Below are positions 1 to 63,511 of a stretch of DNA of 64,000 nucleotides, piece by piece. Positions within the stretch are counted from its first letter, which is position 1. Each line of letters starts with the position of its first letter. The notes below the pieces were generated by a model. It was not told the origin of the DNA, ran no database searches, and saw only the letters and a program-made list of their open reading frames with translations. Origin of the DNA: Mytilus trossulus. Its lineage: Eukaryota. The stretch is from positions 62,434,001 through 62,498,000 of the forward strand of contig NC_086383.1 of the NCBI RefSeq assembly GCF_036588685.1, given 5' to 3'. Both the position numbers and the translations under genes were made by a program.

Positions 1-1482
1 TTGTCTTGTATATTTTTAATTGTATAAATCTCTGTCCTGCCTTTTCTTTTCAGTTTATTCGGTCCTGTTTTTTTAATATGTTTATCCTGACAAATTTTAC
101 ATAAATTGTCATCCTATCCTTTTTTACCAAGTAAAAACAATGTACCTCATCCTGACTTTTTTCACTAAACATTCATGTCCTGCCTTTTTGTCAATTTTCA
201 TCCTATCCCCCCTTTCCATAAAAGTCAAATGGTAGCTTCCTAATCGAGCCCTTAACTCGTGTACCGTTCTTATCCATTGTGTTGGCAATGAGAACAAATT
301 AGGAAATGTGTGTGATATCAATTCAATGAATAAACGTTGTACAGTACTTGAAATGAAACCGTACTTAACTACAAAAACAACCCAATTACATAATAATTTT
401 ATTGTTCGATTTTTATAGTAATAGGTTTGTTTTATAAACTGTCATGTGCACTATTTATATTCACATTCTTTCGCAAGTTTTAGCTATTCGACTAGGGGTA
501 TTGTGATTTTTCCTGATTATGTCTACTAGTATTTTATTGTGAAGACAAAGAATCCCGAAATTCTAAATAAAGTCAGAATACGTAACCAACCATGCTTGTT
601 TCGAGAAAGATGGATATGACAAACAATAATTTTCACTGTGGAGGGAAATGTACTGTCATATAAATGTCCTGTTAAATTGTTCCTTTTAAAAGTTTTGGAT
701 TCTCATAAATTCTATGTATTACTTTTGGACTAGTTTGAATCTCGGTCTATTTCTGTAATTTATTCTTACATACTTTTGATTTTTTAACCCTGTATGCTTT
801 CATTGCCTATGTAAATTTTAAAATTGTTTATAATCCTGGTACTTTTGATAACTATTGTATGCACATTGAACGACAAATGTATGTGACGTATATAATTTTT
901 CTGACGTCAGACACTCAAATCAATCCATGTGTTCGTAGATAGAAGATGTTTTTGTGTCCTGTTAAATTGTTCCTTTTAAAATTGTTATACGATGATGGCT
1001 GATGTACCCATATTTTGACTATTTTATTAATTGTGACTGTTTATTTAACGCATCATGTAAATTTAGCGGAATTTGATGAGACTGTTATTAAAGTGAGATG
1101 GTTAGCGCTATAGAACCAGGTTTAATCCACCATTTTCTACATTTGAAAATGCCTGTACCAAGTCAGGAATATGACAGTTCTTGTCCATTCGTTTTTGATG
1201 CGTTTTGTTTTTTGATTTTGCCATGTGATTATAGACTTTCCAAATTGATTTTCCTCTGAGTTCAGTATTTTTGTGATTTTACTTTTCAGTAACGCCCGTC
1301 ATATACTTGATGAATTTATAATTTACTGTTCTCGGTTGAAATTATATATTGTAAATATTCAAATAGTTACAAAGAAAACAATCAAGTTGAAAAGGTGTTT
1401 GTTCATTAAAGGTGAGTCCCTCCTTGTATATGCATTTAGTCATCATTAATTTCTTGATATTTCGTTTATCAGTTTATTATAC

Positions 1483-3569: not shown

Positions 3570-3873
3570 TCACCGGCACAGTAGTCAACATTTCGGTGTT
3601 GACATGAATATCAATAATGTGGTCATTTTAATAAATATCCTGTTTACAAAACTTTGAATTTTTCGAAAACTAAGGATTTTCTTATTTCAGTCATAGATTA
3701 CCTAAGCCGTATTTGGTACAACTTTTTGGAACTATGGATCCTCAATGCTCTTCAACTTTGTCCTTGTTTGGCTTTATAAATGTTTCGATATGAGGGTCAC
3801 TGATGAGTCTTATGTAGACGAAAAGCGCGACTGGCGTACTAAGTTATAATCTTGGTACCTTTGATAACTATTT
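3570..3873 (+). mobile_element. Family 1 retrozyme-like copy, 5'-truncated, with mutated HHR
   Basis: Homologous to 52552-52850; CTGATGA at 3800, GAAA at 3820, but the cleavage triplet reads GAC. Confidence 0.8.
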
Positions 3874-11348: not shown

Positions 11349-11445
11349 AAGGTGAAACAAACCAATCAACACACTACATATCGTACAACGTCAGTGTACA
11401 GTAAACCATCTAAGTATTTAAAGCACACACTATTGCAGAAATCAT
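11349..11445 (+). promoter_or_regulatory. Putative proximal promoter of gene A (CRE-like ACGTCA at 11388, TATA-like TATTTAAA at 11415)
   Basis: Block AAGGTGAAACA..AATCAACA..AACGTCAG..GTAA..CTATTG..AATCAT is conserved upstream of gene B (38228-38327). Confidence 0.4.
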
Positions 11446-11472
11446 GTTAGAATGGTGTGTGGACTGACAAGA

Positions 11473-16770: not shown

Positions 16771-16841
16771 ATCCTCCAATTTAAATAATTTCTTAATTGT
16801 TTCAATCCGTGATCGATATTTAAAACATACATCTATTTCAG

Positions 16842-17077
16842 CTGACATCGGAAGAGTGTACAATATGTATATATGCATACAAGGTGAAAGGAGACAAGGA
16901 GAATGGAAGTACATCGATGGATCTACGATGACGTATTTCAGGTGGCATCCAACTTATCCTAATGGAGATTCTAACGTGATCGGTATGAGCCGAAAGCATG
17001 ACTATACTTGGAAAACTCCTATAGGTACAGCCAAATGTACCTATATGTGTGAATATGGACCGAACGAAAATCGATGA
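16842..17077 (+). CDS. Gene A exon 3 (terminal): C-terminal half of C-type lectin-like domain
   Basis: Acceptor tatttcAG at 16840-16841; in frame with exon 2; ICIQG..GEWKYIDGS.MTYFRW...YTW...CTYMCEY; spliced CDS 304+171+236=711 nt = 236 aa; AATAAA at 17358. Confidence 0.88.
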
Positions 17078-21829: not shown

Positions 21830-24001
21830 ATAACACGAACTCCACTAAAACCGGGAGTGAAATCAGGTGCTCCGGAAGAATAAGCATTTCCTGCACCGTA
21901 TACGTCACCCGTTGTGTTATTGTTTTGTTTAGTTCGGTAGTGATGGAAGGTTATTAGGACTGAGGAAGAATAGAATATATGATTTCTGACACACTTTTGT
22001 CATAATGGCCAATCAACTCATGATGGCGACCGTAAAATTTCTTGAGTGATGACCTTGATTTGATTGATTCATAGTCCTGTCTTAGCAACTTTTGAGAAAA
22101 CAGTATTTCTCGTTCAACATCAACGTACTTAAAGCTAGCTCTAGAGTAACATATCAATTGAGAAACACATACTCAATATGCTGATGCCGCTGGCATGTTG
22201 CTACACAGAAATGGAATGTTGATTATAGGAAAATTAAAAGCATCGCGTTTGTCATAAATTTTGGTTTTTAATCTACCATCAGTAGTCATTTCGAGAAAAC
22301 AATCTGAATATGAAGCAGATATATCTGTGTCGGCAGTATCTTTAATTTCAAGTTCATTTGGATATATTAAATGTAAGTGATCACTGAATCTATTATTATT
22401 AAGAGACAGTACATCATCAATATACCAAAAGGTGAAATTAAAAGGCTGGGATAATTTCTTTTCTCCTTTTTGTACATGCCCTTGTGTATATTCTGCTTCA
22501 CTGGAATATGCAAACAAACCTGCAAGTAGAGGAGCGCAATTGGCACCCATTTAGATTCCAATTGTCTGTTGAAGGTTACATTACACCATTAGATTTTATG
22601 GGCGCAGCCATTTTATGAGCATAACATGTTATTCAGAATTAAGAGTATGGCGAATCCTGATTGGTCGATATGTGCGCCCGTTTTTTTTATTAGAGACTTC
22701 GTGCACTCTGCTTTATACAAAAGGCAAAATAAAAATTATTCCGTAGCCCTAAAGACACTGAGATGACTTTTCAACACTAGGACAAGACACGTATTTTTAA
22801 GGGCAAAATTGGTAGCCATGGGAGATAAGTACAAAATACGCTAAGAAAAGCAACGTGACCCTATATTTTTTGGACCAAAAAATACTGTCCTAATAACTTT
22901 TCTTTGATTCTAGTAAGGTTTCGTTAAAAAAATCAACTTTCTAAAGTCTGTATCTCGAAAAAGGCTACCATTGTCGCCTATGGGGAAATTAATTGTTTAT
23001 TTTAATCTGAAAGACCAAACCTCCTAATTCAACAAATATGTTGTCAATTAAAAAGTACTGAATGGCAGTGAAATCCTCTTCGGTGAATTTTTGCTTGACT
23101 ATGTATGATTTTACACAAAGCTAGCTGAAATCCTGCCCAGAACTAGATATTTAATCGTCGAGTGCCTTTTCTGTTAAGTAAACATAAGCCGACGAGTTCT
23201 ATTAGTCCATTTAGTATGTGAAATAGTGGTATAAAGAGTTGAAAAACCAAAGGTTTTAATTTTGTTGCAATGATTTAGTAAGTGAGATTGTAAATTCACC
23301 AATAACTCTTTTGATTTTCTCTTATTTACACCACTTCTCAAATATGCAATTTCGGAATATTTCTGAAGTCTTTCTTTAACTGCAATGAGTATGACAGTAA
23401 GTACTTTGAAAAGGGATTTAGTGGAACACTTGGAAGAACCTGCAATATACCATTCCCTATATGGATTCTTGTCAGGAATCCAATGTAAGGATGGAAGATC
23501 CTGGTCTTCATCCACTGGATTAACAACAAAAGATATTATAACCGATTTGTAGTTTTTCCAGGATCTCCTACGTCGGAGGCGTACTTAGTGTATATGTAGA
23601 ATTTCCAAGTGTGTTATTTATTCCGAGTTCCTCAATTAGGTAGTCATTGTAGTGTTTCTTGCAAACAACAACAATATTGTTTGAGATTTAATCAGCTGGA
23701 ACGACAACATATTTGTCATGGAGACAAAAGAACATCTCTATGACCTGAGGACCTTTAACGATGGTAGGAGGTTTGGTACTCATTGACCCATTCAGCTTAC
23801 TAACTCTTATCTGAATCAATGACATCACTGATTTTACCCACTCAACTAGAATGTCAACTTCAACCTTTTCTGTTTTGCCCAGTCTTTTGCATAATCCTCA
23901 ACATATTTTATAGCATCAATATCCTTGTTTGTGAACTTCAAATTGAAAAATGAACGTTTTTGCAGTTCCTCCAAATGTTCAAAAACGGATCTGTATAATC
24001 T
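21830..24001 (-). mobile_element. Penelope-like retroelement (second subfamily), frameshifted RT, interrupted at ~22575-23190 by an unrelated insert
   Basis: MGANCAPLLA, YIDDVLSLNN, KIYDKRDAFNFPIINIPFLCSNMPAASAY, DLPSLHWIP, TFGFSTLYTTISH. Confidence 0.82.
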
Positions 24002-24409
24002 ATGGTTAGCCATACCCATCACTACAGCAACTATTTTATGCTTCGTAGATCGACTATATGTAGTGTGGCTTTGTAATGGTTAAAAAATACTTCAAATAAC
24101 ATAAATACTAAAATAATCTTCATCTATATTCAATGTTTAAACATGTACCTGTGACGTAATGTTTTGATGCGTTGATACATTATTGTGACCCACAGTTCTT
24201 TATTCTATTTTGCTTGTGTACTGTCATAAAGCAATTTAGTTTTTCATTGTTATTCTGTTGTTAATATATCGAAATGTACCAATATTATTCATTTAATGAT
24301 GTATTTCTCTGTTCTGCTTGTTCTTGCATTTATTTTTACTTTAATCCTGGCATGTAATGTTGCAGTTAAGCGGAACATTTAACATGGCCATAACGCGCGA
24401 GATGGAATG

Positions 24410-24839
24410 GCTTTGGTTCATAAAAAAGAATGATCAACATAGATACAAGTATCTTGTCTTAAGGAGGGATAAATACTACTTTGTAAAAGATCACTCTCAT
24501 TTAAACAAAAAATTCTCTGAAACTGACAGTATCAAGTTGTTTGATGTTTTGATTGAAAACATATTTGTTACATTCGGCGGACGTATTTTTCAACAGACTG
24601 TCGGCATTCCAATGGGAACCATTTGTGTCCCTCTTCTTGCCAACTTGCTTTTTTATTATAATGAGACTGACTTCATACATGAACTTCCTAGGAAGACAGA
24701 TAAGAAGTAAGCAATATCGTTTAACTCTACTTTCCGCTATATAGATGACGTTCTTTCACTTAATAATTAAAACAAATGGTGACTCGGTTGAACGTATCTA
24801 TCCCATCTTACTAGAGATAAAGGAAACACCAGATACAGT
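24410..24839 (+). mobile_element. Penelope-like RT fragment
   Basis: LIENIFVTFGGRIFQQTVGIPMGTICVPLLA; TTCCGCTATATAGATGACGTTCTT (FRYIDDVL). Confidence 0.8.
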
Positions 24840-26726
24840 GTAAAAACAAACTAAATATGAAAACTACACGTTACAGATTTGTATGACTCCACAACGATTT
24901 TCTGAATTTACCTTCATCAGAAACGCTCAGAGCCTAAAATTCAAAAGCAAGGGTTAAAATTTACAGTTTCAGTAGCAATAAATGTTTCCGAATAACATGT
25001 TTGAACCATTCATTTTATGAACGATTACACTTCCTTTGGAACACTTCTTATGGTAAATGATTTGTCGAAGAACTAACTACCTCAGGACAATATCTGAAAC
25101 TAATTTTTGGTAACGATATTTAGTATAATAGTATTAGTTACATTGTGTGCTAATGACCTAACACAATATATATAGGGTCAGTAAATTCTGTACGGTGTGA
25201 TATCGAAGCTCTAGTCCCTAGATTGATTTTAATGACTCCATATATATATTACATTAGGTCTATAGCACACTATGTAACGAATTTGTCTGACTGACCATCT
25301 TAAACTTTACATGTATCATTGAGTGGGTTATAAAAGTGATCCAGTCTTCCTCCATACCGTTAATATTAAGAACCTAACGCCATCGGTATATAAACAAACA
25401 AATACCAGCAGTATCAACTTGTAAACTTCAAATGTGATTTATGATACATTTTAATCGTTCAATATCAATTTCATCGTCTGTTAATACCTTTACGGCGTTT
25501 CCTCAAAACCTTGGTGTTTGTATAAAGGGACATAACACCACTACTAACCGTGTATTGAAATAAGTCCGCCTTCTAGCCTTATATGGAATATGAATGGTCT
25601 AAATACGTTTGCGTTTTACCAATCATAGCCCTAGAAATGTGTAGGATGTAAGATAATTTAGATCCATCTTAAGGCAATTTTGTAAAAGGTCGAAACTACA
25701 ACAGCAAGTATTAATTTTATTGTTTTTTGTATGTAAACTGTATATTATTTATAATGTTTTAAGCCATTGGCCCATATTGGCGTAAAGTGCTTTTCAATAA
25801 TTAAAAGTAAAAAAAAGTATTAATTTAAAACTGAAATCTTAACCAACAAACGTTTATTCGTCGCATTTTTTATCAAATTTAGCAAATAACTTTACTGTAA
25901 AGATAAAACAATGACCTTGTTCAACAATACACGCTCGGATTCGATAAAACTTTTGGAATTGAAAAAAAAAAAAAAAAATCTAAAAAAAAAAATGACACAT
26001 CAAATCGTGGACTAGCGTCAATGAAGATTCCAAATTATCAATATAATCATTCGTTGTTAATTTATAAGATAGTGCCAGCTGACGAATGCTAAAACACTGT
26101 AAAGTGAAATTATTTGAAAGTATTAAATCATACTCCGACAAAGCACTTCCGTCGACTTCATAGCTCATTTGTACCGTGTTTACGCATAAATATAAGATTG
26201 TTCTTGAACATTATATGCCTGTTACAGTATTAGACAACCTCTTAACGTAATTTTGTATCCATGGTCTGTTTTGGTCTGACACCGTCGTAACGGATCTTAA
26301 CAGCTCGCTAGGAGATTCAGTCTTGATAATCTTGACATGCCTTCACGGACTGATTCACCTAATGAGACTATCGATCATAACGAGGTCTTAAGGGTCTAAA
26401 AAGTTTCGACGTTTGTCTCTAGCGGTATATCCAGTCAATTTAGATATGATAAGACCAAAATGACCGTTTCAGACTGAAATCGTGCTACTAGTGAGAGTAT
26501 TAGACACAACACAGACTGTATGCTTGCATCAACCTAACTGAAGACATAATTACTTGAAGTCTGAACATTTTGCTATTTTTTGTTTTATTCGTGTCAGTTT
26601 TTAATATCATCATGATTTCCTAAACACGCTACATCAACTGAATTAGGTCCTGCATGGGTTATACAAAAACATCTTAAAAATGTCTTTTGCTAATTTATGA
26701 TTAATACAGACATACATTTATTTTAG

Positions 26727-27020: not shown

Positions 27021-27097
27021 CTAGTTATCAAAGGTACCAGGATTAAAATTCAATTTACCAGACGCGCGTTTTGTCAGTGACGCTCAGATAAAATATT
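27021..27097 (-). mobile_element. Family 1 retrozyme fragment with internally deleted HHR
   Basis: Reverse complement reads GAGCGTCACTGA..CAAAACGCGCGTCTGG...AATCCTGGTACCTTTGATAACTA. Confidence 0.65.
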
Positions 27098-27702
27098 CAA
27101 CTACTCAGTTTATATCTGATTACTATTGCGACTAAACCATTTTTGCAAGCAAACACATTTATTTAATATGTTAACACTTGTCAAAAAAGTCTTTTTATAT
27201 TTCTCTTCTGAAAGAAACAATTAAATATAAAGTTTAAAATTCAAACACATGTATGTTAACCTCTAGAAAAAAAATGTGTTAAATCCTAATAGTTCTTACA
27301 AACTTTGCACTTTTTTATTTCCGATTTATTTTAGCTGACTCCAAATTACTTTCTTTTCAACAGTTGACGTAGCTGAATAATATCTTGTACGTATCTGTTA
27401 TTGTGCAAATAATGAAATACAACAAAAAAAACAACAAAATAAATCAAAATCTAAACAGCATTTCAAAAATCGTTCAATATGCCTTTCAATAAACGTGAGT
27501 TATTATCGACCAGCTTTGTTCTGCAAGCCATCAATGTTCTGTTTGTTGTTTGCTGTTGATTTATTTATTTGCTTAGTTAAAGCACATATGTTTTAATTTT
27601 CCTTTTAGCTTGCTTGCTATGATTTAAGCCTGTATGTTTAGCTACTACAGTCAGTATGTATATGTTTTTTTTTATGTGTCTTCTGTCAAATGTTTGATGT
27701 AT

Positions 27703-32445: not shown

Positions 32446-32769
32446 CAAGCATTTTAACGAAGAGACAAAATATGATAGGACCGATTAGTTAATACATAAT
32501 GTTGAGCACTACAAATTAATTACTTTATGTTACTACATATTAGTTACATTTGTTAAAGGTCAAGTTTAAAGTTTTTTTTTATTTCGGCCTATTATCTTGA
32601 TAATTATAATACAATATATTATATGTGTGTTTTGTTGAAGAATTTGCAATGATTTTGTTATCATTTTAGTTTCATAATGAAACATATATCGTACTGTCAT
32701 TTGAAAAGAATGCAATAAATATACAAGGTGCATTTATTTGTTAAACCGAATCTCATTACATAAACTACT

Positions 32770-34253
32770 TGATTAACAACTTAGGTATTGACAACTTAGA
32801 ATGAAACTCAACATGTACCCTTATGACACTTACCAAAGAGGAAATCCTAGATAACCATATTCCTTTGGAATTTCAACCAAAAATGAATAACTAGATCTTA
32901 AAACACTTTATTGGGTACGTAAACTGTATAAGAGTCCTTACAAACAACGGTATATTGCTCAGTCTTTCAAGAAAAGCATTTCTAAATCATTGCCATCTAT
33001 TTTATCAGCAGTCAAAGCCGTGCTTCAAAATTATTGGGAAACTGCACATTAAGAGGTGACTTGAATAAGATGTGGATACTAAAAACAATTATAAGTTTTT
33101 TTTAAGAATACATACAATATAAGACTCTTTCATTTTGCAGTAGTATTAACCATTTGACTTTTCCACACGTTACACAAGTATTTCTCATTCCAAACTACAA
33201 GACAAATTGAAAGAGTAAGTATTGGTTTCTTTCATAAAAAAGAATGATCAACGTAGAAACGAATATCTTGTCTAAGAAAGGGGTAAATCATACTTTGCAA
33301 AAAATCACTCTGATTTTCAAAAAAAATTCTCTGAATCTTAAATTATCAAGACGCTTGAGTTCTTGATCGACAATATATGTGTCACTCTACGTTTGGTGAC
33401 CAATTTTTCAACAGACTGTCGCCATTCCAATGGGAAACAATTATGTTTCTCTTTTTGTCGACTAATTATTTTACTATCACGAAGCTGACTTCCTTCTGGA
33501 ACCTCTCCTGAAGAAAGATTAATAGTTTACAATATCCTTTACATTTATATTCCGCTATATAGATGATGTTCTCTCAATAGGTCATTTATATTTCATGACT
33601 GTGTTAAACGCATCTATTCCATGGACCTAGAGATAAAAAAAATACCACAGATATAGCGAATCTGCCTTACATCTTGGCTGAAGTTTAGAAGTTGACAATA
33701 AGGGTCGGTTGAAAACAAAATCTTAAGTCAAAAGAGATGGTTTAGCTTCCCAATTCTATATCTATGTAGCAACATTCCAGCAGCAGCTGCATGCGGTGTA
33801 TTCGCTTTTTCGCTTGAATTGTTTTACATTGTCTTATCGGGGCCTTTTATAGCTGACTATATGCGTTATGGGCTTTGCTCATTGTATAAGCCCGTACGGT
33901 GACCTATAATTGTTAATGTTTGTGTCATTTTGGTCTTTCATACCACATCTTCTTTTTTTATATTTATATGATCTCCTTATTGGTATACCTGGGCTTGTAT
34001 TTCCTAACATGATTTCATTGAAGGAAGCTTTTGAACCAAGAGTTTCAAATGGTGCATTTGAAATCATCCCTTCGTAAATTTTATCGACACCATTACAAGT
34101 TGGTTGAACGCTATGGAATATCCGTTTTAAAGGTGATATCGGTTATGTTCCTCATGTCGTCACTACAATCCCCTTCCAATATCACTAATATGACCTACCG
34201 AATTAGGCTATTAACGGGGTTCGTGATAACATGAGAAACAAGACGGGTGACAT
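32770..34253 (+). mobile_element. Penelope-like retroelement, decayed RT, with nested SINE-like fragment (~33801-33965)
   Basis: TTTGACTTTTCCACACGTTACACAAG (FDFSTxYT), ATTCCAATGGGA (IPMG), TTCCGCTATATAGATGATGTT (FRYIDDV), LKSSLRKFY. Confidence 0.8.
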
Positions 34254-34852: not shown

Positions 34853-34933
34853 TGGTCTCTGATGAATCGTTCTTAGACGAAACGCGCGCCTGGCGTAAAT
34901 AGAAAATTTAATCCTAGTTTCTATGACGAGTTT
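34853..34933 (+). mobile_element. Degenerate HHR/retrozyme fragment
   Basis: CTGATGA at 34859 ... AGACGAAACGCGCGCCTGGCGTAA; GTC changed to GCC. Confidence 0.65.
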
Positions 34934-35874: not shown

Positions 35875-37130
35875 TGTGCACTGTTATTATTCGAGATACA
35901 TTATTGTTAACCCCTTTCACTACAGTCAATGACCGTAAGGGGCACGGTAATTGTTCGAGATACATGATTGTTTACCCCTTTCATTGCAGACAATGACCGT
36001 AAGGGGCACGGTAATTGTTCGAGATACATTATTGTTAACCTCTTTCACTACAGACAATGACCGTAAGCTTAGGGGCACGGTAATTGTTCGAGATACATTA
36101 TTGTTAACCCCTTTCACTACAGACAATGACCGTAAGGGGCACGGTAATTGTTCGAGATACATTATTGTTAACCCCTTTCACTACAGACAATGACCGTAAG
36201 GGGCACGGTAATTGTTCGAGATACATTATTGTTAACCCCTTTCACTACAGACAATGACCGTAAGGGGCACGGTAATTGTTCGAGATACATTGTTGTTAAC
36301 CCCTTTCATTGCAGACAATGACCGTTAGGGACACGGTAATTATTCGAGATACATTATTGTTAAACCCTTTCACTACATACAATGACCGTAAGGCATATAA
36401 GGGGCACGGTTATTATTCGAGTCACATTATTGTAAATTCCTTTCACTACAGACAATGACCGTAAGGGGCACGGTAATTATTCGAGTCACATTATTGTAAA
36501 TTCCTTTCACTACAGACAATGACCGTAAGGGGCATGGTAACTATTCAAGTAGCATTATTGTTAGCCCCTTTCACTACAGACAACGACCGTAAGGGGCACG
36601 GTAATTATTCAAGTTACATTATTGTTAACCCCTTTCACTACAGACAATGACCGTAAGGGGCACGTTAATTATTTGAGATACATTATTGTTAACCCTTTCA
36701 CTACAGACAATGACCGTAAGGTGCACGGTAATTATTTGAGATACATTATTGTAAACCCCTTTCACTACAGACAATGACCGTAAGGGGCAAGGTAATTATT
36801 CAAAATACATTATTGTTAACCGTGTCACTACATATAATGACCGTAAGGGACACGGTAATTATTTGAGTTACATTATTGTAAAACTCTTTCACTACAGACA
36901 ATGACCGTTAGGGGCACAGTAATTATTTGAATTACATTATTGAAAACCCGATTCACTACGGGCAATGACCATACGATGGCGCGGTAATTATTCGAGTTAC
37001 ATAATTGTTAACCCAATTCATTACGGACAATGACCGTAAGGGGCACGGTAATAATTCGAGATACATTATTGTTAACCCGAATCACAACAAACAATGGAAG
37101 TTATAGGGACTGTAAATATTCGATTGATAT
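35875..37130. repeat. 64-bp minisatellite, ~19 copies
   Basis: Unit GACAATGACCGTAAGGGGCACGGTAATTGTTCGAGATACATTATTGTTAACCCCTTTCACTACA. Confidence 0.95.
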
Positions 37131-37285: not shown

Positions 37286-37712
37286 GAAAAATTGAAAACA
37301 ACACGTTAAATAATTTTAATGCATCGAAAGCGCTTTTGTGGTTTACCTTTATCAGGAACGCTAAAAGCCAAACATTTGAAATTCGAGGATGCAGAAGTAC
37401 CGAAACCGTTGATGAGCTTTATCACAAAAACAACTAAAATTGATAGCCAAATTCATCTAAAGTCAACTTTGCCCTAGGGAGTTGAAACCTTAGTTTCTTG
37501 ATATTTTAGAATTTATATACGGACAATTTTAGTAAAGTTTGTTAAATCATGCCAGTACCGAAGTACTGACTACTGAGCTGACGATACTCTCGGGGACTGA
37601 TAGTCCACCAGCAGAGGTATTGACCCAGTAATGTAAAAAATTGAAAACAACACGTTTAATAAATTATATACGTCCGAAGCGCTTTTCTGGATTTATCTGC
37701 ATCAATAACGCT
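37286..37712 (-). mobile_element. Retrozyme-like element, family 2 (~349-nt monomer bracketed by two decayed HHRs)
   Basis: TTGAAAACAACACGTT repeats at 37292 and 37641; reverse-complement consensus GCGTTC-CTGATGA-AGGTAAATCCA-GAAA-AGCGCT-TC-GGACGC; 37551-37630 is the reverse complement of the family 1 core at 52501-52578. Confidence 0.72.
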
Positions 37713-38227: not shown

Positions 38228-38327
38228 AAGGTGAAACAGACAAATCAACATATAATAGGTCAACGTATAACGTCAGCGCATAGTAACCACATAATTATTC
38301 GAAGTACAAACTATTGAAGTCAATCAT
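38228..38327 (+). promoter_or_regulatory. Putative proximal promoter of gene B
   Basis: Homologous to 11349-11445; ACGTCA at 38270 is retained and the TATA-like box reads TATTCGAA. Confidence 0.35.
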
Positions 38328-38354
38328 AGAAGAGAACTTTGTGAACTGATACGA

Positions 38355-38664
38355 ATGGATATATCTATCATATTTCTATGTATGCATACGATGTTCGTTG
38401 CTGTCCATAGTGAATCAAGAATTAGATTGATCTCAGCGCACAATAAACCTGAATATGACAACAAGTATGAAGAAGAGAACGCCATTGACACCTATCATGC
38501 TAGATCTGTTGGGCTTTGCGGTATGCAATGTATATCGAATGCGCGGTGTTTATCATTCTTCTACAACAATCTTACAGGAATGTGTGTTGTACACTCAGAC
38601 CCGTTTACCTATACTGTGATGTCATCTTCAGCGAAAGGTTGGACATTTTACCTTTCACAGGAAC
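38355..38664 (+). CDS. Gene B exon 1: signal peptide + PAN/apple-like domain
   Basis: 71/78 aa identical to gene A in the mature part (hand count); donor C|GTAAGT at 38665. Confidence 0.88.
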
Positions 38665-39295
38665 GTAAGTCTACATAAAATATTTATAAACTATAGCAAA
38701 TTCCTATCCTGTCTGGTTAACAAAAAATTTGAACGTCAACTTTATATTTCTTGATTTGTTTTACTTGGGCGTGGTTTAACCGGATTGCTAATTAAAGACC
38801 AGTCCATCTACATTGTATAGACAGATGTTTTGGGATAAACTCATCAATGAAGTGTCCAGTTATTCGTCTCATATCATACACTCAGTCATTTTGTTTATCC
38901 GTTCGGTGACACGGGTAGGTTATTAGAAATCACTAATTATGATAACGGTAATCGCACACATACTCAAATAGACTGTCTTTCGGCAAATTAAAACGCATGC
39001 TCCGGCCAATCAGATGACAACACATTCATCTTGCAAAACCGCGTTTTTTTTAGTATGGCCTAGCCCCGTTGGAAATACTGTGAAAACCCCGGTTTTACTG
39101 AGTTTAAGTGTGTAATACTGGGTGTTACTGCGTAATAAAAAAATACTTTTGAATTTTATAAAGATTTCAGTGATCAAACACAAATGTAATACATTAAAGA
39201 TATTTAGTATCTATTGTGTTTGTCTTGATTGGTAAAACTGGAAATATAAAGCAAAAAAAGTGTTTTTCAAATAAATATAACGCCTGTTAATTAAT

Positions 39296-39623: not shown

Positions 39624-40673
39624 AATTAATTAGGAATTTACAGATGTAAGAAAAATAACATTTTAATGATGTATAAGTACTGTCACTAATTAAAAAGTAA
39701 TTATTCAGATTATAATATAGATTTGTTTATGTAACAATAATCTGCCCATTATAGTTTATAAGTATTAATGGCATGACCCCTTAAGTGTTTTTTTTATCAA
39801 TATGAATGGTTAATACCTAAAATTAACAACTCACTTAAACACTGCAATAAATGCATCCTTTTCAAAGTTTGGATTTTTGAAACAATGCTTGGTAAATAAC
39901 AAGGTGTCATTAAGTGTTAAAATCTTAGTATTCTGTCTACATAAAAAGAGATTGAAATTAAATTTTACATTCTTCTAGAAATGACTGTCAATAGATATCT
40001 GTATAGAAAGTATATATTTAGATGTTATACTATTAAACTACAATAATTCTTTATTATTTTATGTTAAAATGAGCTAAAACATTGATATTGCCCAGTAATA
40101 CCGAGTATTACATATTTCTGGGAGTATTATCAACACGACTGGAAATTCCAAAACGAATAATACTTTGCGAACCCAGATCACATTGGTAAACTAATCATGT
40201 GTACAACCACTCTGTCAATGCCACTACTGCATAATGGGGTTTTCACTACTAATGGGCTTTCCGCTACTGATGGGGCTCCTTCCTATGAGTACCATTCGCC
40301 AAATAGTCTTCATTTATGTATTGGCAGACATTGTCTTTGTTAAAAACATCTTAGCATAATGTCTGTTTGTCTTTTTCCTTTTAAGCCATGGCGTTTTCAG
40401 GTTATTGTCGATTTCTGAGTTTGACTGTCCCTCTGGTATCTTTCGTCCCTAATTTAAAATAAACTGTTGACAATCATGTTTTGTTAATTTCTTTCAAGAT
40501 ATGAAGTTTTTTTTTCTAATGTAAGCCTTGAACGCTTTTCAATTTTTTTGTTTTTTTTGCCTTTTGAACATTTTTGATTCCAGTGGTGCATTCCAGTGTA
40601 CACTCAGGAGTCTTTTGTAGGCTAAAAGAAAATCGGATGTAAAAATATATTCCTGGTATCTATGATTAGTTAA

Positions 40674-45072: not shown

Positions 45073-48000
45073 TAATGTATTGGTAGTTCTTTTCCTAAAA
45101 CGATAGAATGTCAAAGACAACCTCGAAAAAATCTTAATATATCGGTAGTTTCCTTAAACGATATAATGTCCTTGACAACCTTGACAATCTTAATATATCG
45201 GAAGTTCTTTTCCTGAAACGATAGAATGTCAATGACAACCTTGAAAATATCTTAATATATTGGTAGTTTCCTTAAACGATAGAATATCCTTGGCAACATT
45301 GACAATCTTTATATATCGGTAGTTCTTTTCCTAAAACGACAGACTGACTTTTACAATCTTAACAACCTCAATATATCGGAAGTACATTTCCTAAAGCTAA
45401 AGAATGTAGCAACTTGACAAACTTAAAATATCGGTAGTTATTTTCCTAAAACAAATGAATGTCTTTGACAACCTTGAAATTCTTAAAATATCCGTAGTTC
45501 TTTTCCTTTAACAGTAGGATGCTCATGACAAACTTGAAAATCTGAATAGACCGGTAGTTCTTTTCCTAAAATGATTTTATGTCCTTGACAATCTTAATAT
45601 ATCGGTAGTTCTTTTCGTGAAACGACAAAAGTCCATGACAACATTGACAATCTTAAAATAACGGTTGTTTTTTTTCCCTAAAACGTTAATATGTGCTTGA
45701 CAACTTGACATTCGTAATGTATCGAGTTTTTTTCCTTAAACGATTGAATATTCTTGACAACCTTAAAATTCTTAATATATCGGTAGTACTTTTCCTTAAA
45801 CGATAGAACGTCGCTGACAGCCTTAACAACCTTATCATATCGGTAATTCTTTTCCTTAAACGATAGAATGTCATTGATAACCTTGACATTCTTAATACAT
45901 GTATATCGGTAGTTATTTTATTCTTAAACAATAGAAAGTCCTTTACAACCTTGAAAATTTAATTAGTTCTTTTCCTAAAACGATAGAATGTCCACGACAA
46001 CCTTGAAAATCTTTATATATCGGTAGTTATTTTCCGTAAACGATAAAAGTTCCTTGGCAACATTGACAATTTTTATATATCGGTAGTTTATTTCCTAAAG
46101 CAACAGCATGTCCTTGACAGCCTTGACATTCTTAATATAACGGTTGTTTTTTCCTTAAACGATAGAATGTCCTTGTCAACCTTGACAATCTTAATATATC
46201 GGTAGTTATTTTCCTAAAACGATAGGGAACCTTAACGATTTTAATATATCGGTAGTTCTTTTCCTAAAACGATAGAATGTCCTTCACAACCTTGAAAATC
46301 TTTATATATCGGTAGTTATTTTCCCTAAACGATAATAGGTCCTTGGCAACATTGATAATTTTTATATATCGGCAGTTTATTTCCTAAAGCGACAGAATGT
46401 CCTTGACAGCCTTGACATTCTTATTATAACGTTTTTTTTCCCTTAAAAGATAGAATGTCCTTGTCAACCTTCGCAATCTTAATATATCGGTAGTTTTTTT
46501 CCCTAAACGATAATAGGTCCTTGGCAACATTGATAATTTTTATATATCCGTAATTTATTTCCTAAAGCGACATAATGTCCTTGACAGCCTTGACATTCTT
46601 AATATAACGGTTTTTTCCCATAAACGATAGAATGTCCTTGACAACCTCGAACAAATCTTAATATATCGGTAGTTTCTTTAAACGATATAATGTCCTTGAC
46701 AACCTTGACAATCTTAATATATCGGAAGTTCTTTTCCTAAAACGATAGAATGTTAATGACAACCTTGAAAAAATCTTAATATATCGGTAGTTTCCTTAAA
46801 CGATAGAATATCCTTGGCAACATTGACAATCTTTATATATCGGTAGTTCTTTTCCTAAATTGACAGACTGACTTTTACAATCTTAACAACCTCAATATAT
46901 CGGAAGTACATTTCCTAAAGCTATAGAATGTAGCAACTTGACAAACTTAAAATATCGGTAGTTATTTTCCTAAAACAAATGAATGTCTTTGACAACCTTG
47001 AAATTCTTAAAATATCCGTAGTTCTTTTCCTTTAACAGTAGGATGCCCATGACAAACTTGAAAATCTGAATAGATCGGTAGTTCTTTTCCTAAAACGATT
47101 TTATGTCCTTGACAATCTTAATATATCGGTAGTTCTTTTCGTGAAACGACAAAAGTCCATGACAACATTGACAATCTTAAAATAACGGTTGTTTTTTTCA
47201 CAAAACGTTAATATGTGCTTGACAACTTGACATTCGTAATGTATCTATTTTTTTTCCTTAAACGATTGAATATTCTTGACAACCTTAAAATTCTTAATAT
47301 ATCGGTAGTTCTTTTCCTTAAACGATAGAATGTCGCTGACAGCCTTAACAACCTTATCCTATCGGTAATTCTTTTCCTTCAACGATAGAATGTCATTGAT
47401 AACCTTGACATTCTTAATACATGTATATCGGTAGTTATTTTATTCTTAAACAATAGAAAGTCCTTTACAACCTTGAAAATTTAATTAGTTCTTTTCCTAA
47501 AACGATAGAATGTCCACGACAACCTTGAAAATCTTTATATATCGGTAGTTATTTTCCGTAAACGATAAAAGGTCCTTGGCAACATTGACAATTTTTATAT
47601 ATCGGTAGTTTATTTCCTAAAGCAACAGAATGTCCTTGACAGCCTTGACATTCTTAATATAACGGTTGTTTTTTTCCTTAAACGATAGAATGTCCTTGTC
47701 AACCTTGACAATCTTAATATATCGGTAGTTATTTTCCTAAAACGATAGGGAACCTTAACGATTTTAATATATCGGTAGTTCTTTTCCTAAAACGATAGAA
47801 TGTCCTTCACAACCTTAAAAATCTTTATATATCGGTAGTTATTTTCCCTAAACGATAATAGGTCCTTGGCAACATTGATAATTTTTATATATCGGCAGTT
47901 TATTTCCTAAAGCGACAGAATGTCCTTGACAGCCTTGACATTCTTATTATAACGTTTTTTTTTCCTTAAAAGATAGAATGTCCTTGTCAACCTTGACAAT

Positions 48001-51000
48001 CTTAATATATCGGTAGTTTTTTTCCCTAAACGATAATAGGTCCTTGGCAACATTGATAATTTTTATATATCCGTAATTTATTTCCTAAAGCGACATAATG
48101 TCCTTGACAGCTTTGACATTCTTAATATAACGTTTTTTTCCCTTAAACGATAGAATGTCCTTGACAACCTCGAAAAAATCTTAATATATCGGTAGTTTCC
48201 TTAAACGATATAATGTCCTTGACAACCTTGACAATCTTAATATATCGGAAGTTCTTTTCCTAAAACGATAGAATGTTAATGACACCCTTGAAAAAATCTT
48301 AATATATCGGTAGTTTCCTTAAACGATATAATGTCCTTGACAACCTTGCCAATCTTAATATATCGGAAGTTCTTTTCCTAAAACGATAGAATGTTAATGA
48401 CAACATTGACAATCTTTATATATCGGTAGTTCTTTTCCTAAAATGACAGACTGACTTTTACAATCTTAACAACCTCAATATATCGGAAGTTCATTTCCTA
48501 AAGCAATAGAATGTAGCAACTTGACAAACTTAAAATATCGGTAGTTATTTTCCTAAAACAAATGAATGTCTTTGACAACCTTGAAATTCTTAAAATATCC
48601 GTAGTTCTTTTCCTTTAACAGTAGGATGCCCATGACAAACTTGAAAATCTGAATAGATCGGTAGTTCTTTTCCTAAAACGATTTTATGTCCTTGACAATC
48701 TTAATATATCGGTAGTTCTTTTCGTGAAACGACAAAAGTCCATGACAACATTGACAATCTTAATATAACGTTGTTTTTTTTTCCTAAAGCGTTAATATGT
48801 GCTTGACAACTTGACATTCGTAATGTATCTATTTTTTTTCCTTAAACGATTGAATATTCTTGACAACCTTAAAATTCTTAATATATCGATAGTTCTTTTC
48901 CTTAAACGATAGAATGTCGCTGACAGCCTTAACAACCTGATCATATCAGTTTCTTTTCCTTAAACGATAGAATGCCATTGATCACCCTGACATTCTTAAT
49001 ACATGTATATCGGTAGTTATTTTTTTCTTAAACAATAGAAAGTCCTTTACAACCTTGAAAATCTTATTAGTTCTTTTCCTAAAACGATAGAATGTCCACG
49101 ACAACCTTGAAAAACTTTATATATCGGTAGTTATTTTCCTTAAACGATAAAAGGTCCTTGGCAACATTGATAATTTTTATGTATCGGTAGTTTATTTCTT
49201 AAAGCAACAGAATGTCCTTGACAGCCTTGACATTCTTAATATAACGGTTGTTTTTTCCTAAAACGATAGAATGTCCTTGTCAACCTTGACAATATTAATA
49301 TATCGGTAGTTATTTTCCTAAAACGATAGGGAACCTTAACGATTTTAATATATCGGTAGTTCTTTTCCTAAAACGATAGAATGTCCTTCACAACCTTGAA
49401 AATCTTTATATATCGGTAGTTATTTTCCCTAAACGATAATAGGTCCTTGGCAACATTGATAATTTTTATATATCGGCAGTTTATTTCCTAAAGCGACAGA
49501 ATGTCCTTGACAGCCTTGACATTCTTATTATAACGTTTTTTTACCCTTAAACGATAGAATGTCCTTGTCAACCTTGACAATCTTAATAGATCGGTAGTTT
49601 TTTTCCCTAAACAATAATAGGTCCTTGGCAACATTGATAGTTTTTATATATCGGTAGTTTATTTCCTAAAGCGACATAATGTCCTTGACAGCCTTGACAT
49701 TCTTAATATAACGGTTTTGTTCCCTTAAACGATAGAATGTCCTTGACAACGTACATTTACAGTTTAATATAACTTTAGTTTTTTTTTTCTTAAACGATAT
49801 AATGTCCTTGACAACCTTGGCAATCTTAATATATCGGAAGTTCTTTTCCTAAAACGATAGAATGTCAATGACAACCTTGAAAAAATCTTAATACATCGGT
49901 AGTTTCCTTGAACGATAGAATATCCTTGGCAACATTGACAATCTTTATATATCGGTAGTTCTTTTCCTAAAACGACAGACTGTCTTTTACAATCTTAACA
50001 ACCTCAATATATCGGAAGTTCATTTCTTAAAGCTATAGAATGTAGCAACTTGAGAAACTTAAAATATCGGTAGTTATTTTCCTAAAAACAAATGAATGTC
50101 TTTGACAACCTTGAAATTCTTAAAATATCCGTAGTTCTTTTCCTTTAACAGTAGGGTGCCCATGACAAACTTGAAAATCTTAATAGATCGGTAGTTCTTT
50201 TCCTAAAACTATTCTATGTCCTTGACAATCTTAATATATCGATAGTTCTTTTAGTGAAACGACAAAAGTCCATGACAACATTGACAATCTTAATATAACG
50301 GTTGTTTTTTCCTAAAACGTTAATATGTGCTTGACAACTTGACATTCGTAATGTATCGAGTTTTTTCCTTAAACGATAGAATATTCTTGAAAACCTTAAA
50401 ATTCTTAATATATCGGTAGTTCTTTTCCTCAAACGATAGAATGTCGCTGACAGCCTTAACAACCTTATCATATCGGTAATTCTTTTCCTTCAACGATAGA
50501 ATGTCATTGATAACCTTGACATTCTTAATACATGTATATCGGTAGTTATTTTTTCTTAAACAATAGAAAGTCCTTTACAACCTTGAAAGTCTTATAAGTT
50601 CTTTTCCTAAAACGAGAGAATGTCCACGACAACCTTGAAAATCTTTATATATTGGTAGTTATTTTCCTTAAACGATAATAGGTCCTTGGCAACATTGACA
50701 ATTTTTATATATCGGTAGTTTATTTCCTAAAGCAACAGAATGTCCTTGACAGCCTTGACATTCTTAATATAACGGTTGTTTTTTCCTAAAACGATAGAAT
50801 GTCCTTGTCAACCTTGACAATCTTAATATATCGGTAGTTATTTTCCTAAAACGACAGGGAACCTTAACGATTTTTAATATATCGGTAGTTCTTTTCCTAA
50901 AACGATATAATGTCCTTCACAACCTTGACAATCTTTATATATCGGAAGTTATTTTCCCTAAACGATAATAGGTCCTTGGCAACATTGACAATTTTTATAT

Positions 51001-52464
51001 ATCGGTAGTTTATTTCCTAAAGCGACAGAATGTCCTTGACAGCCTTGACATTCTTAATATAACGGTTGTTTTTTCCTTAAACGATAGAATGTCCTTGTCA
51101 ACCTTGACAATCTAAATATATCGGTAATTATTTTCCCTAAACGATAATAGGTCCTTGGCAACATTGATAATTTTTATATATCGGTAGTTTATTTCCTAAA
51201 GCGACATAATGTCCTTGACAGCCTTGACATTCTTAATATAACGGTTGTTTTTTCCTAAAACGATAGAATGTCCTTGTCAACTTTGACAATCTTAATATAT
51301 CGGTAGTTATTTTCCTAAAACGACAGGGAACCTTAACGATTTTTAATATATCGGTAGTTCTTTTCCTAAAACGATATAATGTCCTTCACAACCTTGACAA
51401 TCTTTATATATCGGAAGTTATTTTCCATAAACGATAATAGGTCCTTGGCAACATTGACAATTTTTATATATCGGTAGTTTATTTCCTAAAGCGACAGAAT
51501 GTCCTTGACAGCCTTGACATTCTTAATATAACCGTTTTTTTTTCCTTAAACGATAGAATGTCCTTGTCAACCTTGACAATCTAAATATATCGGTAATTAT
51601 TTTCCCTAAACGATAATAGGTCCTTGGCAACATTGATAATTTTTATATATCGGTAGTTTATTTCCTAAAGCGACATAATGTCCTTGACAGCCTTGACATT
51701 CTTAATATAACGAATTTTTCCCCTTAAACGATAAAATGTCCTTGACAACGTTCATTTACAGTTTAATAGAACGTTAGCTTTTTTTTCCTAAAACTAAAGA
51801 ATGTCTTTGGCAACATTGACAATCTTAACATATCTGTAGTTGTTTTCCCCAAACGATAGAATGTCCCTGACAGCCTTAACAACCTTATGCTATCGGTAAT
51901 TCTTTTCCTTAAACGATAGAATGTCATTGAGAACCTTGACATTCCTAATACATTGGTAGTTATTTTTCTAAAACAATAGAATGTGCTTTACAACCTAGAC
52001 ATCTTCAATATGACGGTTGTTTTTTTTCCTTAAACGATAGAATAGTCTTGTCAACCTTGACAATCTTAATATATCGGTAGTTATTTTCCCTAAACGATAG
52101 TAGGTCCTTGGCAACATTGACAATTTTTTATATATTGGTAGTTTATTTCCTAAAGCAAGATAATGTCCTTGACAGCCTTGACATTCTTAATATAACTGTT
52201 GTTTTTCCTTAAACGATACAATGTCTTTGTCAACCTTGACAATCTTAATATATCGGTAGTTATCTTCCCTAAACGATAGTTGGTCCTTGGCAACATTGAC
52301 AATATTGATATATCAGTATTCTTTTCCTAAAACTATAGAATGTCCTTGGCAACATTGACAATCTTAACGTATCGGTAATTTTTTTCCTAAAACATTAGAA
52401 TGCACTTTACATCTTGACATTCTTAATGTATCTAATTTTTTTTCCTTAAGCGATAGAATATTCT

Positions 52465-52848
52465 AAATTATAATCCTAGTACCTTTGATAATTATTTACA
52501 CCACTGGGTCGATGCCACTGCTGGTGGATGTTTCGTCCCCGAGGGTATCACCAGCCCAGTAGTCAGCACTTCGGTGTTGACATGAATATTAATTATGTGG
52601 TCATTTTTATAAATTTACTGGTTACAAAACTTTGAATTTTTCGAAAAGCTAAGGATTTTCTTATCCCAGGAATAGATAACCTTAGCTGTATTTGGCACAA
52701 CTTTTTGGAATTTTGGATTCTCAATGGTCTTCAACTTCGTACTTGTTTGGCTTTATAAATATTTTGATATGAGCGTCACTGATGAGTCTTATGTAGACGA
52801 AACGCGCGTCTGGCGTACTAAATTATAATCCCGGTACCTTTGATAACT
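52465..52848 (+). mobile_element. Non-LTR retrozyme-like element, family 1 (355-nt monomer + ~29-nt terminal redundancy)
   Basis: AAATTATAATCCyrGTACCTTTGATAAyT repeats 355 nt apart; inserted in the satellite with flanking ATATTCT duplication (52458-52464 / 52849-52855); contains an intact HHR. Confidence 0.85.
52773..52816 (+). ncRNA. Type I hammerhead ribozyme with minimal palindromic stem III (intact core)
   Basis: GCGTCA-CTGATGA-GTCT(TATGT)AGAC-GAAA-CGCGCG-TC^TGGCGT: stem I GCGUCA/UGGCGU, stem II GUCU/AGAC, predicted cleavage after GUC at 52810. Confidence 0.88.
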
Positions 52849-53361
52849 ATATTCTTGACAACCTTGACATTCTTAATATATCGGTAGTTGTTTTCCCCGA
52901 ACGATAGAATGTCCCTGACAGCCTTAACAACCTTATTATATCGGTAATTCTTTTCATTAAACGATATAATGTCATTGACAACCTTGACATTCTTAATATA
53001 TCGGAAGTTATTTTTCTTAAACAATAGAATTACCTTTACAACCTTGAAAATCTTATTATATCTGTAAATCTTTTCCTTCAACGATTGAATGTCATTGACA
53101 ACATTGACAATCTTAAAATATCGGTAGTTATTTTTCCTAAACGATAGTAGGTCCTTGGCTACATTGACAAGCTTGATATATCGGTAGTGTATTCCCTAAA
53201 ACTATAGAATATCTTTGGCAACAATGATAATCTTAACATATCGGGAATTGTTTTCCTAAAACGATAGAATGTCCTTGACAACCTTGATTATCTTGATATA
53301 TCGGTAGTTATGTCCTATAATGTTGAATCAGAATAATATCAGATACTCCTGCAACTCATAA

Positions 53362-53504
53362 GCACAACTTTTATGAATCTGGATCATCAATGCTCTTCAA
53401 CTTCGTACTTGTTTGGCTTTATGATATTTTGTTATGAACGTTACTGAGGTAGACGAAACGCGCGTCTTGCGTACTAAATTATAATCCTGGTACATTTGAT
53501 AACT
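53362..53504 (+). mobile_element. Family 1 retrozyme fragment (HHR core partly deleted)
   Basis: ...TTACTGAGGTAGACGAAACGCGCGTCTTGCGTACTAAATTATAATCCTGGTAC. Confidence 0.7.
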
Positions 53505-59223: not shown

Positions 59224-59462
59224 TAATTATCAAATGTATCATGCTTATAAATTAATACGCCTCGTTTCGTCTACTTAAGACGCACCAGCGACGCTCAGAT
59301 TAAAAAAGTTAGAAAGCCAAACAAGTATAAAGTGGAAGAGCATTGAGGACCCTTAATTCAACAAAAGTTGTGCCCAATACGGCTAAGGTAATCTGTGCCT
59401 GGGATAAGAAAATCCTATTCTATTCGAAAAATTCTAACTTTTGCTAGCAGGAAATTTATAAA
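59224..59462 (-). mobile_element. Family 1 retrozyme copy, degenerate
   Basis: Reverse-complement similarity to 52605-52850, including remnant GTTTCGTCTAC..AAGAC..CAGCGACGCTC. Confidence 0.65.
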
Positions 59463-59599
59463 AAAAATCCAGCATCCAAATGCGTGCTTCAGTTGACCTA
59501 TGAACAAAAGTGCGCACTAGTTCAGTGAAAATGGATACCATACTAAACTTCAAAATAAAAAATTAACTACATCTACAATACATAATGCTCTACGACATT

Positions 59600-60012
59600 G
59601 ATTCGAGTGTACTGATGAGTCTGTTGTAGACGAACAATGTGTCTCGCCTATGATTATGATTTTGTTTACAACAAATGGATCAATGCCACTGGCGATGCAG
59701 TTTTTGTTCACGATGTCCTATCAAACCCAGTTGCCACCATTATTATGTTGACAAAATTCATCATTAATATGGCCATAAATTTCAATTTACTGTTTATTAG
59801 ATTGAAATAATAAAAAAAGAAGGAACTTTCTACTCACTAACTATGAAACTTAAAGCTGTCTTTGGCAAACAAAATTAGGAGTTGTGGATCTGAATTGCTC
59901 CTCGAACACATCCTTTTTTTGGTAATGTTGACTATTTGATTCGATCGTTACTAACGAGTTTTTTTTGTAGACACAACTCGCGTCTGTTATAAAAATTACA
60001 ATGTTGGTATAC
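59600..60012 (+). mobile_element. Old retrozyme-like monomer with two decayed HHRs 339 nt apart
   Basis: CTGATGAGTCTGTTGTAGACGAAC at 59612 and CTAACGAGTTTTTTTTGTAGACACAACTCGCGTCTG at 59951; internal GATCAATGCCACTGG core. Confidence 0.55.
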
Positions 60013-61654: not shown

Positions 61655-63511
61655 TAATCTTTACAGAAATTTGACATTACCGTTTTTGCATCATTGATAT
61701 CTACCACAATTCATATCTTTACAGAAACCTGACATTACCGTTTTCGTACCATTGAGATCTACCATAATTCATATCTCTACAGAAACCTGACATTACGGTT
61801 TTTGTACCATTGAGATCTACTTAAATTCATATCTTTACAGAAACCTGACATTACCGTTTTTGTACCAATGAGATCTACTTAGATTCATATCTTTAGAGAA
61901 ACCTGACATTACCGTTTTTGTAACATTGAGATCTACCAAAATTCATATCTTTACAGAAACCTGACATTATCGTTTTTGTACCATTGATATCTACAAAAAT
62001 TCATATCTTTACATAAACCTGACATTACCGTTTTTTGTACCATAGAGATCTACTAAAATTCATATCCTTACAGAAACCTGACATTACCGTTTTTGTACCA
62101 TTGATATCTACCAAAATTCATATCTTTACAAAACTGACATTACCGTTTTTGTACCATTGAGATCTACCAAAATCCATATCTTTACTGAAACCGGACATTA
62201 CCGTTTTTTTACCATTGAGATCTACCAAAATCCATATCTTTACTGAAACATGACATTACCGTTTTTGTAACATTGAGATCTACCAAAATTCATATCTTTA
62301 CAGAAACCTGACATTACCGTTTTTGTACCATTGAGATCTACCAAAATTCATATCTTTACTGAAACCTGACATTACCGTTTTTGTACCATTGATATCTACC
62401 AAAATTCATATCTTGACAGAAACCTGAAATTACCGTTTTTGTACCATTGAGATCTACCAAAATTCATATCTTTACAGAAACCTGACATTACCGTTTTTGT
62501 ACCATTGAGATCTACCAAAATTCATATCTTTACAAAACTGACATTACCGTTTTTGTACCTTTGAGATCTACCAAAATCCATATCTTTACTGAAACCTGAC
62601 ATTACCGTTTTTTTACCATTGAGATCTACCAAAATCCATATCTTTACTGAAACCTGACATTACCGTTTTTGTACCATTGAGATCTACCAAAATTCATATC
62701 TTTACAGAAACCTGACATTACCGTTTTTGTACCATTGAGATCTACCAAAATTCATATCTTTACAAAACTGACATTACCGTTTTTGTACCATTGAGATCTA
62801 CCAAAATCCATATCTTTACTGAAACCTGACATTACCGTTTTTTTAAATTGAGATCCACCAAAATTCATATCTTTACAGAAACCTGACATTACCGTTTTTG
62901 TACCATTGAGATCTACCAAAATTCATATCTTTACTGAAACCTGACATTACCGTTTTTGTACCATTGATATCTACCAAAATTCATATCTTGACAGAAACCT
63001 GAAATAACCGTTTTTGTACCATTGAGATCTACCAAAATTCATATCTTTACAGAAACCTGACATTACCGTTTTTGTACCATTGAGATCTACCAAAATTCAT
63101 ACTTTTACAGAAACCTGACATTACCGTTTTTGTACCATGGAGATCTATCATAATTCATATCTTTATAGAAACCTGACATTACCGTTTTTAAACCATTGAG
63201 ATCTACCAAAATTCATATCTTTACAGAAACCTGACATTACCGTTTTTTTACCATTGAGATCTACCAAAATTCATATCTTTACAGAAACCTGACATTACCG
63301 TTTTTGTACCATTGAGATCTACAAATTTCATATCTTTACAGAAACCTGACATTACCGTTTTTGTACCATTGAGATCTACCAAAATTCAAACCTTTACAGA
63401 AACCTGACATTACCGTTTTTTGTACCATTGTGATCTACCAAAATTCATATATTTACAGAAACCTGACATTACCGTTTTTGTACCATTGAAATATACCAAA
63501 ATTTATATCTT
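61655..63511. repeat. 58-bp minisatellite, ~32 copies
   Basis: Unit ACAGAAACCTGACATTACCGTTTTTGTACCATTGAGATCTACCAAAATTCATATCTTT. Confidence 0.95.

Follow-up and report, generated by a model that had tools for sequence, protein, structure and literature searches.

A hammerhead retrozyme copy in a mussel satellite array and the common 3' end of its family

The insertion and its neighbourhood

Here we describe a short non-coding insertion in Mytilus trossulus together with its relatives in the window, by which we mean the whole 64-kb stretch of DNA that was analysed (Table 1). The insertion interrupts a 60-bp satellite of more than 130 units, in which the spacing of variant units gives a higher-order period of about 1.5 kb. 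Two other satellite arrays are present in the window, at 35878-37096 (64 bp) and 61657-63511 (58 bp, 92% matches), as well as two similar exons on the plus strand, 11422-11790 and 38295-38678, which carry a signal-like stretch and a PAN domain (Pfam PF00024, E about 1e-6) and are apparently a local duplication. Decayed Naiad-type fragments of Penelope-like elements were found at 21957-24061 (-), 24399-24879 (+), 16225-16848 (-) and 32676-34159 (+); all four carry stops and frameshifts, and the first two stand back to back, inverted. Full-length Naiad-type relatives are about 1000 aa long, with an N-terminal GIY-YIG and a C-terminal RT domain, and a search of the PDB with a Naiad fragment gave nothing significant.

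Table 1. Coordinates of the insertion, its parts and its relatives in the window
Feature	Position	Strand	Remarks
Host 60-bp satellite array	45073..53311	.	interrupted by the insertion
Target-site duplication, 5' copy	52458..52464	+	7 nt; last 2 nt also fit the element
Partial second lap	52465..52493	+	29 nt; 5'-truncated insertion end; +10 to +38 from cleavage site
Full retrozyme unit	52494..52848	+	355 nt; non-coding; GC 38.6%
Predicted hairpin, candidate reverse transcriptase binding site	52503..52560	+	just 3' of the fixed end position; z -1.6
Type I hammerhead ribozyme motif	52773..52816	+	cleavage predicted after 52810
Tail	52811..52848	+	38 nt; predicted cleavage site to the family's fixed 3' end
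Target-site duplication, 3' copy	52849..52855	+	first 2 nt match the continuation of the element as well
Sister copy, tail only	828..853	+	+13 to +38; between 5-nt direct repeats
Sister copy, 5'-truncated	3570..3869	+	identity 89%; stem III altered; 3' end shared
Sister copy, short	27023..27100	-	hammerhead lost by internal deletion; 3' end shared; duplication of 4-5 nt probable
Second-subfamily short copy	34855..34926	+	hammerhead and diverged tail
Diverged relative	37287..37712	-	about 1.2 laps; second lap stops at homologous position
Second-subfamily decayed short copy	40601..40672	+
Sister copy, broken hammerhead	53362..53504	+	3' end shared; lies 500 nt away from the focal insert
Older sister copy, about 80%	59225..59519	-	broken hammerhead; 3' end about +36 to +38
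Old diverged relative	59598..60009	+	about 1.2 laps; 3' end placed only roughly

Between the two copies of ATATTCT lie 384 nt, which an earlier note on this DNA had read as a 355-nt monomer with about 29 nt of redundancy, and our measurements agree with it. Self-comparison of the insert is best at an offset of 355, where 37 of 70 positions match; the other 19 offsets that were tried match at 13-26. The redundant ends, 52465-52493 and 52820-52848, are identical at 26 of 29 positions. If the insert and one repeat are taken out, the 60-bp satellite is back in register, as the same note had claimed. ATATTCT departs from the satellite consensus, yet the same variant is found in the same phase in four other units, at 45748, 47270, 48854 and 50381 (the chance of the 7-mer is about 3e-4), and the target therefore pre-existed and the duplication is genuine. 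Neither junction can be placed more closely than 2 nt (CT on the 5' side and AT on the 3' side), so that the redundant segment starts at +10 from the cut, or at +8 if the CT common to the duplication is included; the value proposed before was about 9 nt. The supposed lack of coding capacity also holds, as the longest ATG open reading frame, read round the unit, has 35 aa, and within the insert we found neither a reverse transcriptase or GIY-YIG endonuclease reading frame nor a long terminal repeat beyond the 29-nt overlap. In size, composition and the length of its 7-nt duplication the unit agrees with the description of non-LTR retrozymes in PMC7229834 (150-450 bp, GC below 45-50%, non-coding, target-site duplication of more than 4 bp).

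The hammerhead core CUGAUGA/GAAA/GUC is intact, as had been stated, with stems I, II and III of 6, 4 and 2 bp, stem III being capped by a palindromic GCGC loop, and the core bases and three stems of a canonical type I hammerhead as defined in PMC7229834 are all present. The comparison with Rfam that had been recommended gave a full-length match to RF00163 at 52773-52816 with E 5e-6 and 33 bits, the gathering score being 34 bits; a scan of the window at gathering thresholds returned no matches, and the hammerhead was found by the E-value scan only. Among 15 close copies 84% of the cells are paired, and two-sided covariation was seen in none of 12 pairs. In the circle the hammerhead fold lies 7.5 kcal/mol above the predicted minimum, and the folding z is -1.9 for the monomer and +0.35 for the hammerhead segment. 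Folding thus lends the hammerhead no independent support. With another fold predicted as the minimum and no two-sided covariation, its putative activity rests on the identity of the motif.

Transcription and age

We compared the insert with four of 24 listed sequencing runs, two of RNA and two presumed to be of DNA. Reads of the family number 6,146 among 8.71 M records in one RNA run (0.07%) and 10,458 among 7.34 M in the other (0.14%), and in mid-unit the first mates are minus versus plus at about 6:1 and 11:1, from which, by the usual stranded-library convention, the RNA of the family is mostly the hammerhead strand. Abundant RNA of this strand, one of the marks of retrozymes in PMC7229834, is thus found at the family level only: just 44 and 32 reads are at least 99% like this copy and the flanks are almost without RNA depth, and for this reason we assign the expression to the family and not to this locus. 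A joint from unit end to unit start (52847 to 52493) occurs in 244 and 557 RNA reads, and reads also cross the predicted cleavage site, while no pile of read ends was seen anywhere on the unit, the cut included, in the two RNA runs. Such joints and such reads fit circles and uncut multimers alike. Another joint, 52704 to 52742, belongs to a variant with a 37-nt deletion, found in 14 and 12 reads of the two RNA runs; the joints listed for the presumed DNA runs do not include it. A second subfamily is also expressed, as marked by loose ends at 52771 and 52817.

Is the insertion a young one, as the earlier note supposed? At no fewer than 13 of its 384 sites (3.4%) this copy has a letter other than that of most RNA reads and DNA contigs, where the sites counted are those listed with the majority differing in all four runs examined. 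These private sites include 52478, 52492 and 52832, which account for all three mismatches between the redundant ends, and it follows that both laps appear to trace to one sequence which has mutated since. The three differences between the laps compare with 2.0 expected (P of three or more, 0.31), and the probability of an unmutated duplication is 0.62. Youth is therefore not supported and the insert is better described as a somewhat aged copy. No empty-site joint occurs among the joints listed, where the depth over the flanks is almost nil. The insert's words are 79-90% present in 14 runs that are non-RNA or unlabelled, which we do not take as proof that this locus is shared, since thousands of copies could supply such words.

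Relatives of the insert and the position of their ends

Nine further copies or relatives lie within the same 64-kb window. They had escaped the earlier note, which mentioned retrozymes of mussels; the size of the unit agrees with this, the repeats reported in PMC7229834 being of 350-390 bp. The 26-nt insertion at 828-853 is the shortest product and the sole kind that a cleaved monomer could template, and the diverged relative at 37287-37712 has about 349 nt per lap and an altered hammerhead core in both laps. Outside the window, a scan of metagenome contigs with an 18-nt core gave 62 loci, of which seven are family members; the other 55 were dropped as GC-rich and devoid of flanking similarity. 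One of the members, L011, has more than two head-to-tail laps, and the family was placed on 70,021 and 46,461 contigs in the two presumed DNA runs, so that head-to-tail repeats and many copies, also part of the description in PMC7229834, are seen at family level. Part of the insert is contained in 20 of 24 listed runs, one of which is labelled a mollusc metagenome. This label, the decayed Naiad elements of the window and the agreement with the mussel retrozymes of PMC7229834 all fit a mytilid host. Prokaryote genomes gave three pattern matches, two of them chance and one real (L063, from a genome bin), and viral contigs gave none with two patterns. The family copies in L028 (1-222) and L063 (182-275) are terminal on their contigs, the remainder of which becomes bacterial; the bin that contains L063 is cyanobacterial, and the GC of this contig rises from 34-38% to 55% past 800 nt. 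Both are probably assembly chimeras with host DNA.

The most telling property of these copies is where they end. With a query in which the unit was permuted so that the suspected end lay mid-query, ten alignments end at +40 to +44 past the cleavage site, five of them in the window (at 52850, 3874, 53509, 27018 and 856) and five elsewhere (L024, L028, L031, L051 and L063). The older copy at 59225 is an eleventh with nearly the same end (Table 1), and in the diverged relative at 37287 the second lap stops at the homologous base. The 5' ends are scattered, at +8, +13, +93, -14, -18, -29, -115 and elsewhere. Were ends uniform, ten in a stretch of 8 nt would have p of about 1e-14, a rough figure that assumes the copies to be independent. 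The metagenome copies had been selected by the hammerhead core and not by their ends, and nine fixed-end copies are left if both putative chimeras, L028 and L063, are dropped. One fragment, L001, is an exception and ends at -68, and L011 and L060 run off their contigs, which makes their ends uninformative. For three copies of the second subfamily BLAST similarity is lost at +4 to +7, and the same three reach the end zone, with a diverged tail, in the multiple alignment only. The 11 copies show a single class of end, and no poly(A) or repeat tail was seen at the junctions. Among seven copies with both ends visible, duplications are clear in three (7, 5 and 4-5 nt) and no clear duplication is found in four. 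The three duplications are rich in A and T, with A or TA as their first letters, in a genome that is 68% AT; elsewhere the letters also match the element.

What do these ends say about the template? A monomer cut by the hammerhead ends at 0. For a copy that passes over the cut and stops at +40, the template must therefore be continuous there and the start internal. The cleaved linear monomer is thereby excluded as the source of every copy except the shortest. The earlier note had proposed that the insert was copied more than once round a circular or multimeric RNA. A template that is longer than one unit and crosses the cut is indeed required, but this is not specific to a circle. Its further reading, of the 29-nt redundancy as a specific footprint of a circle, goes too far, since the 5' ends of other copies scatter and Penelope-like elements also make partial tandems (PMC8557442, PMC11167929). 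Nor do we see a special signal in the position of the focal 5' end, at +10, given that other copies have theirs scattered over the unit. The assignment to the non-LTR retrozymes was right, while the fixed 3' end common to the family had been missed.

Together, a fixed end, scattered 5' ends and partial tandems are the insertion pattern of Penelope-type elements. LINEs and SINEs, too, are marked by 5' truncation, duplications of variable length and a 3' end that is fixed, and all of these would fit a LINE-type enzyme acting, as for a SINE, on a linear RNA that really finishes at about +40. We consider this very unlikely, given that the junctions are without poly(A) or repeat tail and that the RNA shows no pile of read ends and hundreds of reads pass into the next lap, with the reservation that library preparation may blur ends. 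Helitron-type elements likewise have 3' ends that are fixed, together with 5' truncation and copies arranged head to tail, but target-site duplications of 5-7 nt are not expected of them. Spread at the DNA level, by a Helitron-like rolling circle or by extrachromosomal circles with the hammerhead as a passenger, would account for the former features and has against it the duplications of 5-7 nt, the abundant strand-biased RNA and the conserved catalytic core, and we regard it as highly improbable. Could the copies instead be truncated 3' ends of an autonomous Penelope-like element and not a separate short element? Tails bearing hammerheads are common in animals (PMC4209133). However, the long copies (L011, 37287-37712, 59598-60009 and the RNA joints) wrap into the unit's own end and not into an open reading frame, and none of 10 loci tested with Naiad-type queries, eight of them family members, gave a Naiad-type protein match. 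The main loose ends upstream in the reads also resemble unit sequence. We have rejected this explanation on the wrapping of the long copies and on these loose ends, and give it next to no credence.

Possible route of insertion and comparison with known systems

We think it probable, if by no means certain, that the insert is an aged copy of a transcribed 355-nt retrozyme which a Penelope-type enzyme inserted from a fixed internal start, with circular RNA as the likely template. The hammerhead strand is transcribed, as the reads crossing the cleavage site and the unit joint show at the level of the family, though not of this locus. Multimers would then cleave themselves and the monomers be ligated into circles, a step that we take from PMC7229834. 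The enzyme may nick AT-rich DNA and prime internally at +38 to +41 with the help of 1-3 matching bases; internal priming is proposed because the 3' ends are fixed. The hairpin just beyond the fixed end is, by analogy, a candidate binding site for the reverse transcriptase. Copying would proceed back over the junction, through one full lap and 29 nt of a second, and then stop, much as other copies have their 5' ends at scattered positions. Integration would produce the 7-nt duplication, which itself is observed. This copy is likely a dead end, as a single hammerhead cannot release a unit alone and there is almost no RNA on the flanks.

It may be that the same enzyme, from the same internal start, used an uncut linear multimer transcribed from a tandem array, circles being a side product; the insert would then be a miniature Penelope partial tandem. 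Several observations are in keeping with this. An anole Penelope-like protein does not need cleavage by the hammerhead in vitro and works mainly on uncut RNA (PMC11167929), tandem copies do exist (L011), the focal 5' end lies 7-9 nt from the upstream cut as if by run-off from a cleaved RNA end, and the active hammerhead fold is not favoured in prediction. On the other hand, neighbouring laps of L011 differ by 7-11%, whereas the focal laps revert to one sequence once the three rare private changes are removed and both carry the same allele at a polymorphic site, which is a weak argument. The RNA of mussel retrozymes is reported to be mostly circular (PMC7229834), and the 5' ends of other copies form no pile at the cut. 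A multimeric template seems to us possible but rather doubtful, and the circle the likelier template of the Penelope-type enzyme. A broader proposal is quite conceivable, and we make it tentatively: retrozyme circles of animals may carry a dedicated Penelope-type start about 40 nt past the junction and before a hairpin, kept across diverged subfamilies. If so, genomic copies are direct records of target-primed reverse transcription round circular RNA, the class of the mobiliser is identified and a minimal RNA signal for integration from circle to genome is defined; a retrotransposon enzyme would be writing circular RNA into DNA. As for a partner, the Naiad-type fragments of the window gave no significant DNA match to the insert, and among them we found no autonomous element with the same end.

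How do retrozymes return to the genome? LINEs or Penelope-like elements have been named as candidates (PMC7229834), and for frogs there is an argument from homology (10.64898/2026.07.22.740005). The element described here is of a known kind, perhaps an already published member, and its locus alone is ordinary. Retrozymes, mussel circles and a model of multimeric cDNA made from a circle have been published (PMC7229834, PMC7761336), and the link to Penelope-like elements has been proposed in print. What we add is the fixed 3' end, which predicts an exact start of reverse transcription and so makes the question of the mobiliser directly testable. For animal retrozymes, neither an internal start nor a 3' end that is fixed turned up in the literature searched, which included the accessible text of PMC10886601 and 10.1101/721605; supplements or repeat databases may hold one.

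The nearest known system is that of the non-LTR retrozymes of Mytilus galloprovincialis, in which Cervera and de la Pena (PMC7229834) described repeats of 350-390 bp with two ribozyme families. As here, these are low-GC and non-coding repeats with a type I hammerhead, duplications of more than 4 bp and high expression; their two similar ribozyme families recall our two subfamilies, and a predicted fold that hides the hammerhead, which we also find, was reported for some of the mussel circles. Unlike those arrays, the focal copy is a solo of 1.08 units. The main text of that paper gives no fixed 3' end or priming site and leaves the choice between a LINE and a Penelope-like mobiliser undecided. 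It is likely that our family is the published one, for which PMC7229834 gives the GenBank accessions MN642551-MN642576 and with which ours agrees in size and subfamily pattern.

Penelope-like elements provide the second comparison. Frangieh et al. (PMC11167929) showed that a purified Penelope-like protein, Poseidon of Anolis, nicks at ATT, uses uncut RNA and starts internally downstream of the hammerhead, and that the genomic ends map to start sites of reverse transcription. Poseidon and our family have in common 5' truncation and RNA in which no ends fall on the ribozyme cut, and the internal start proposed here is, like that of Poseidon, fixed and past the hammerhead; its targets are AT-rich, as are the three duplications seen here, in a genome rich in AT. 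Penelope-like elements also resemble the insert in having a truncated copy followed by a full one (PMC11167929, PMC8557442), for which Craig et al. (PMC8557442) consider 5'-truncated partial tandems the normal form of insertion. In the described cases these are made without a shown circle (PMC8557442, PMC11167929), and copying of more than a unit from circles has been suggested for such elements (PMC4209133). There are differences as well. The proposed start lies about 40 nt past the cut here and, from the coordinates in PMC11167929, about 85-92 nt past it in the anole element. We find one class of end, whereas Penelope has two start sites that give an optional tail of 30-40 bp, and short target matches at the junction, whereas PMC11167929 reports no homology at the start site. 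Unlike Penelope-like elements, our insert has no open reading frame, a canonical three-helix hammerhead and a likely circular template; Naiads are described as lacking canonical hammerheads (PMC8557442).

Lastly, Li, Clavereau and Pollet (10.64898/2026.07.22.740005) proposed in 2026 that Penelope-like elements are both the origin and the mobiliser of vertebrate retrozymes. The main text of their work does not contain the words 'tail', 'initiation', 'TPRT' or 'mussel'. By their definition an 'active' retrozyme is something other than our locus, which has one hammerhead, and we found no pLTR homologue of the insert. Dispersed solo monomers like ours are described among the vertebrate retrozymes. 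Their evidence is co-occurrence and pLTR homology in Xenopus, whereas ours is the geometry of insertion ends in a mollusc.
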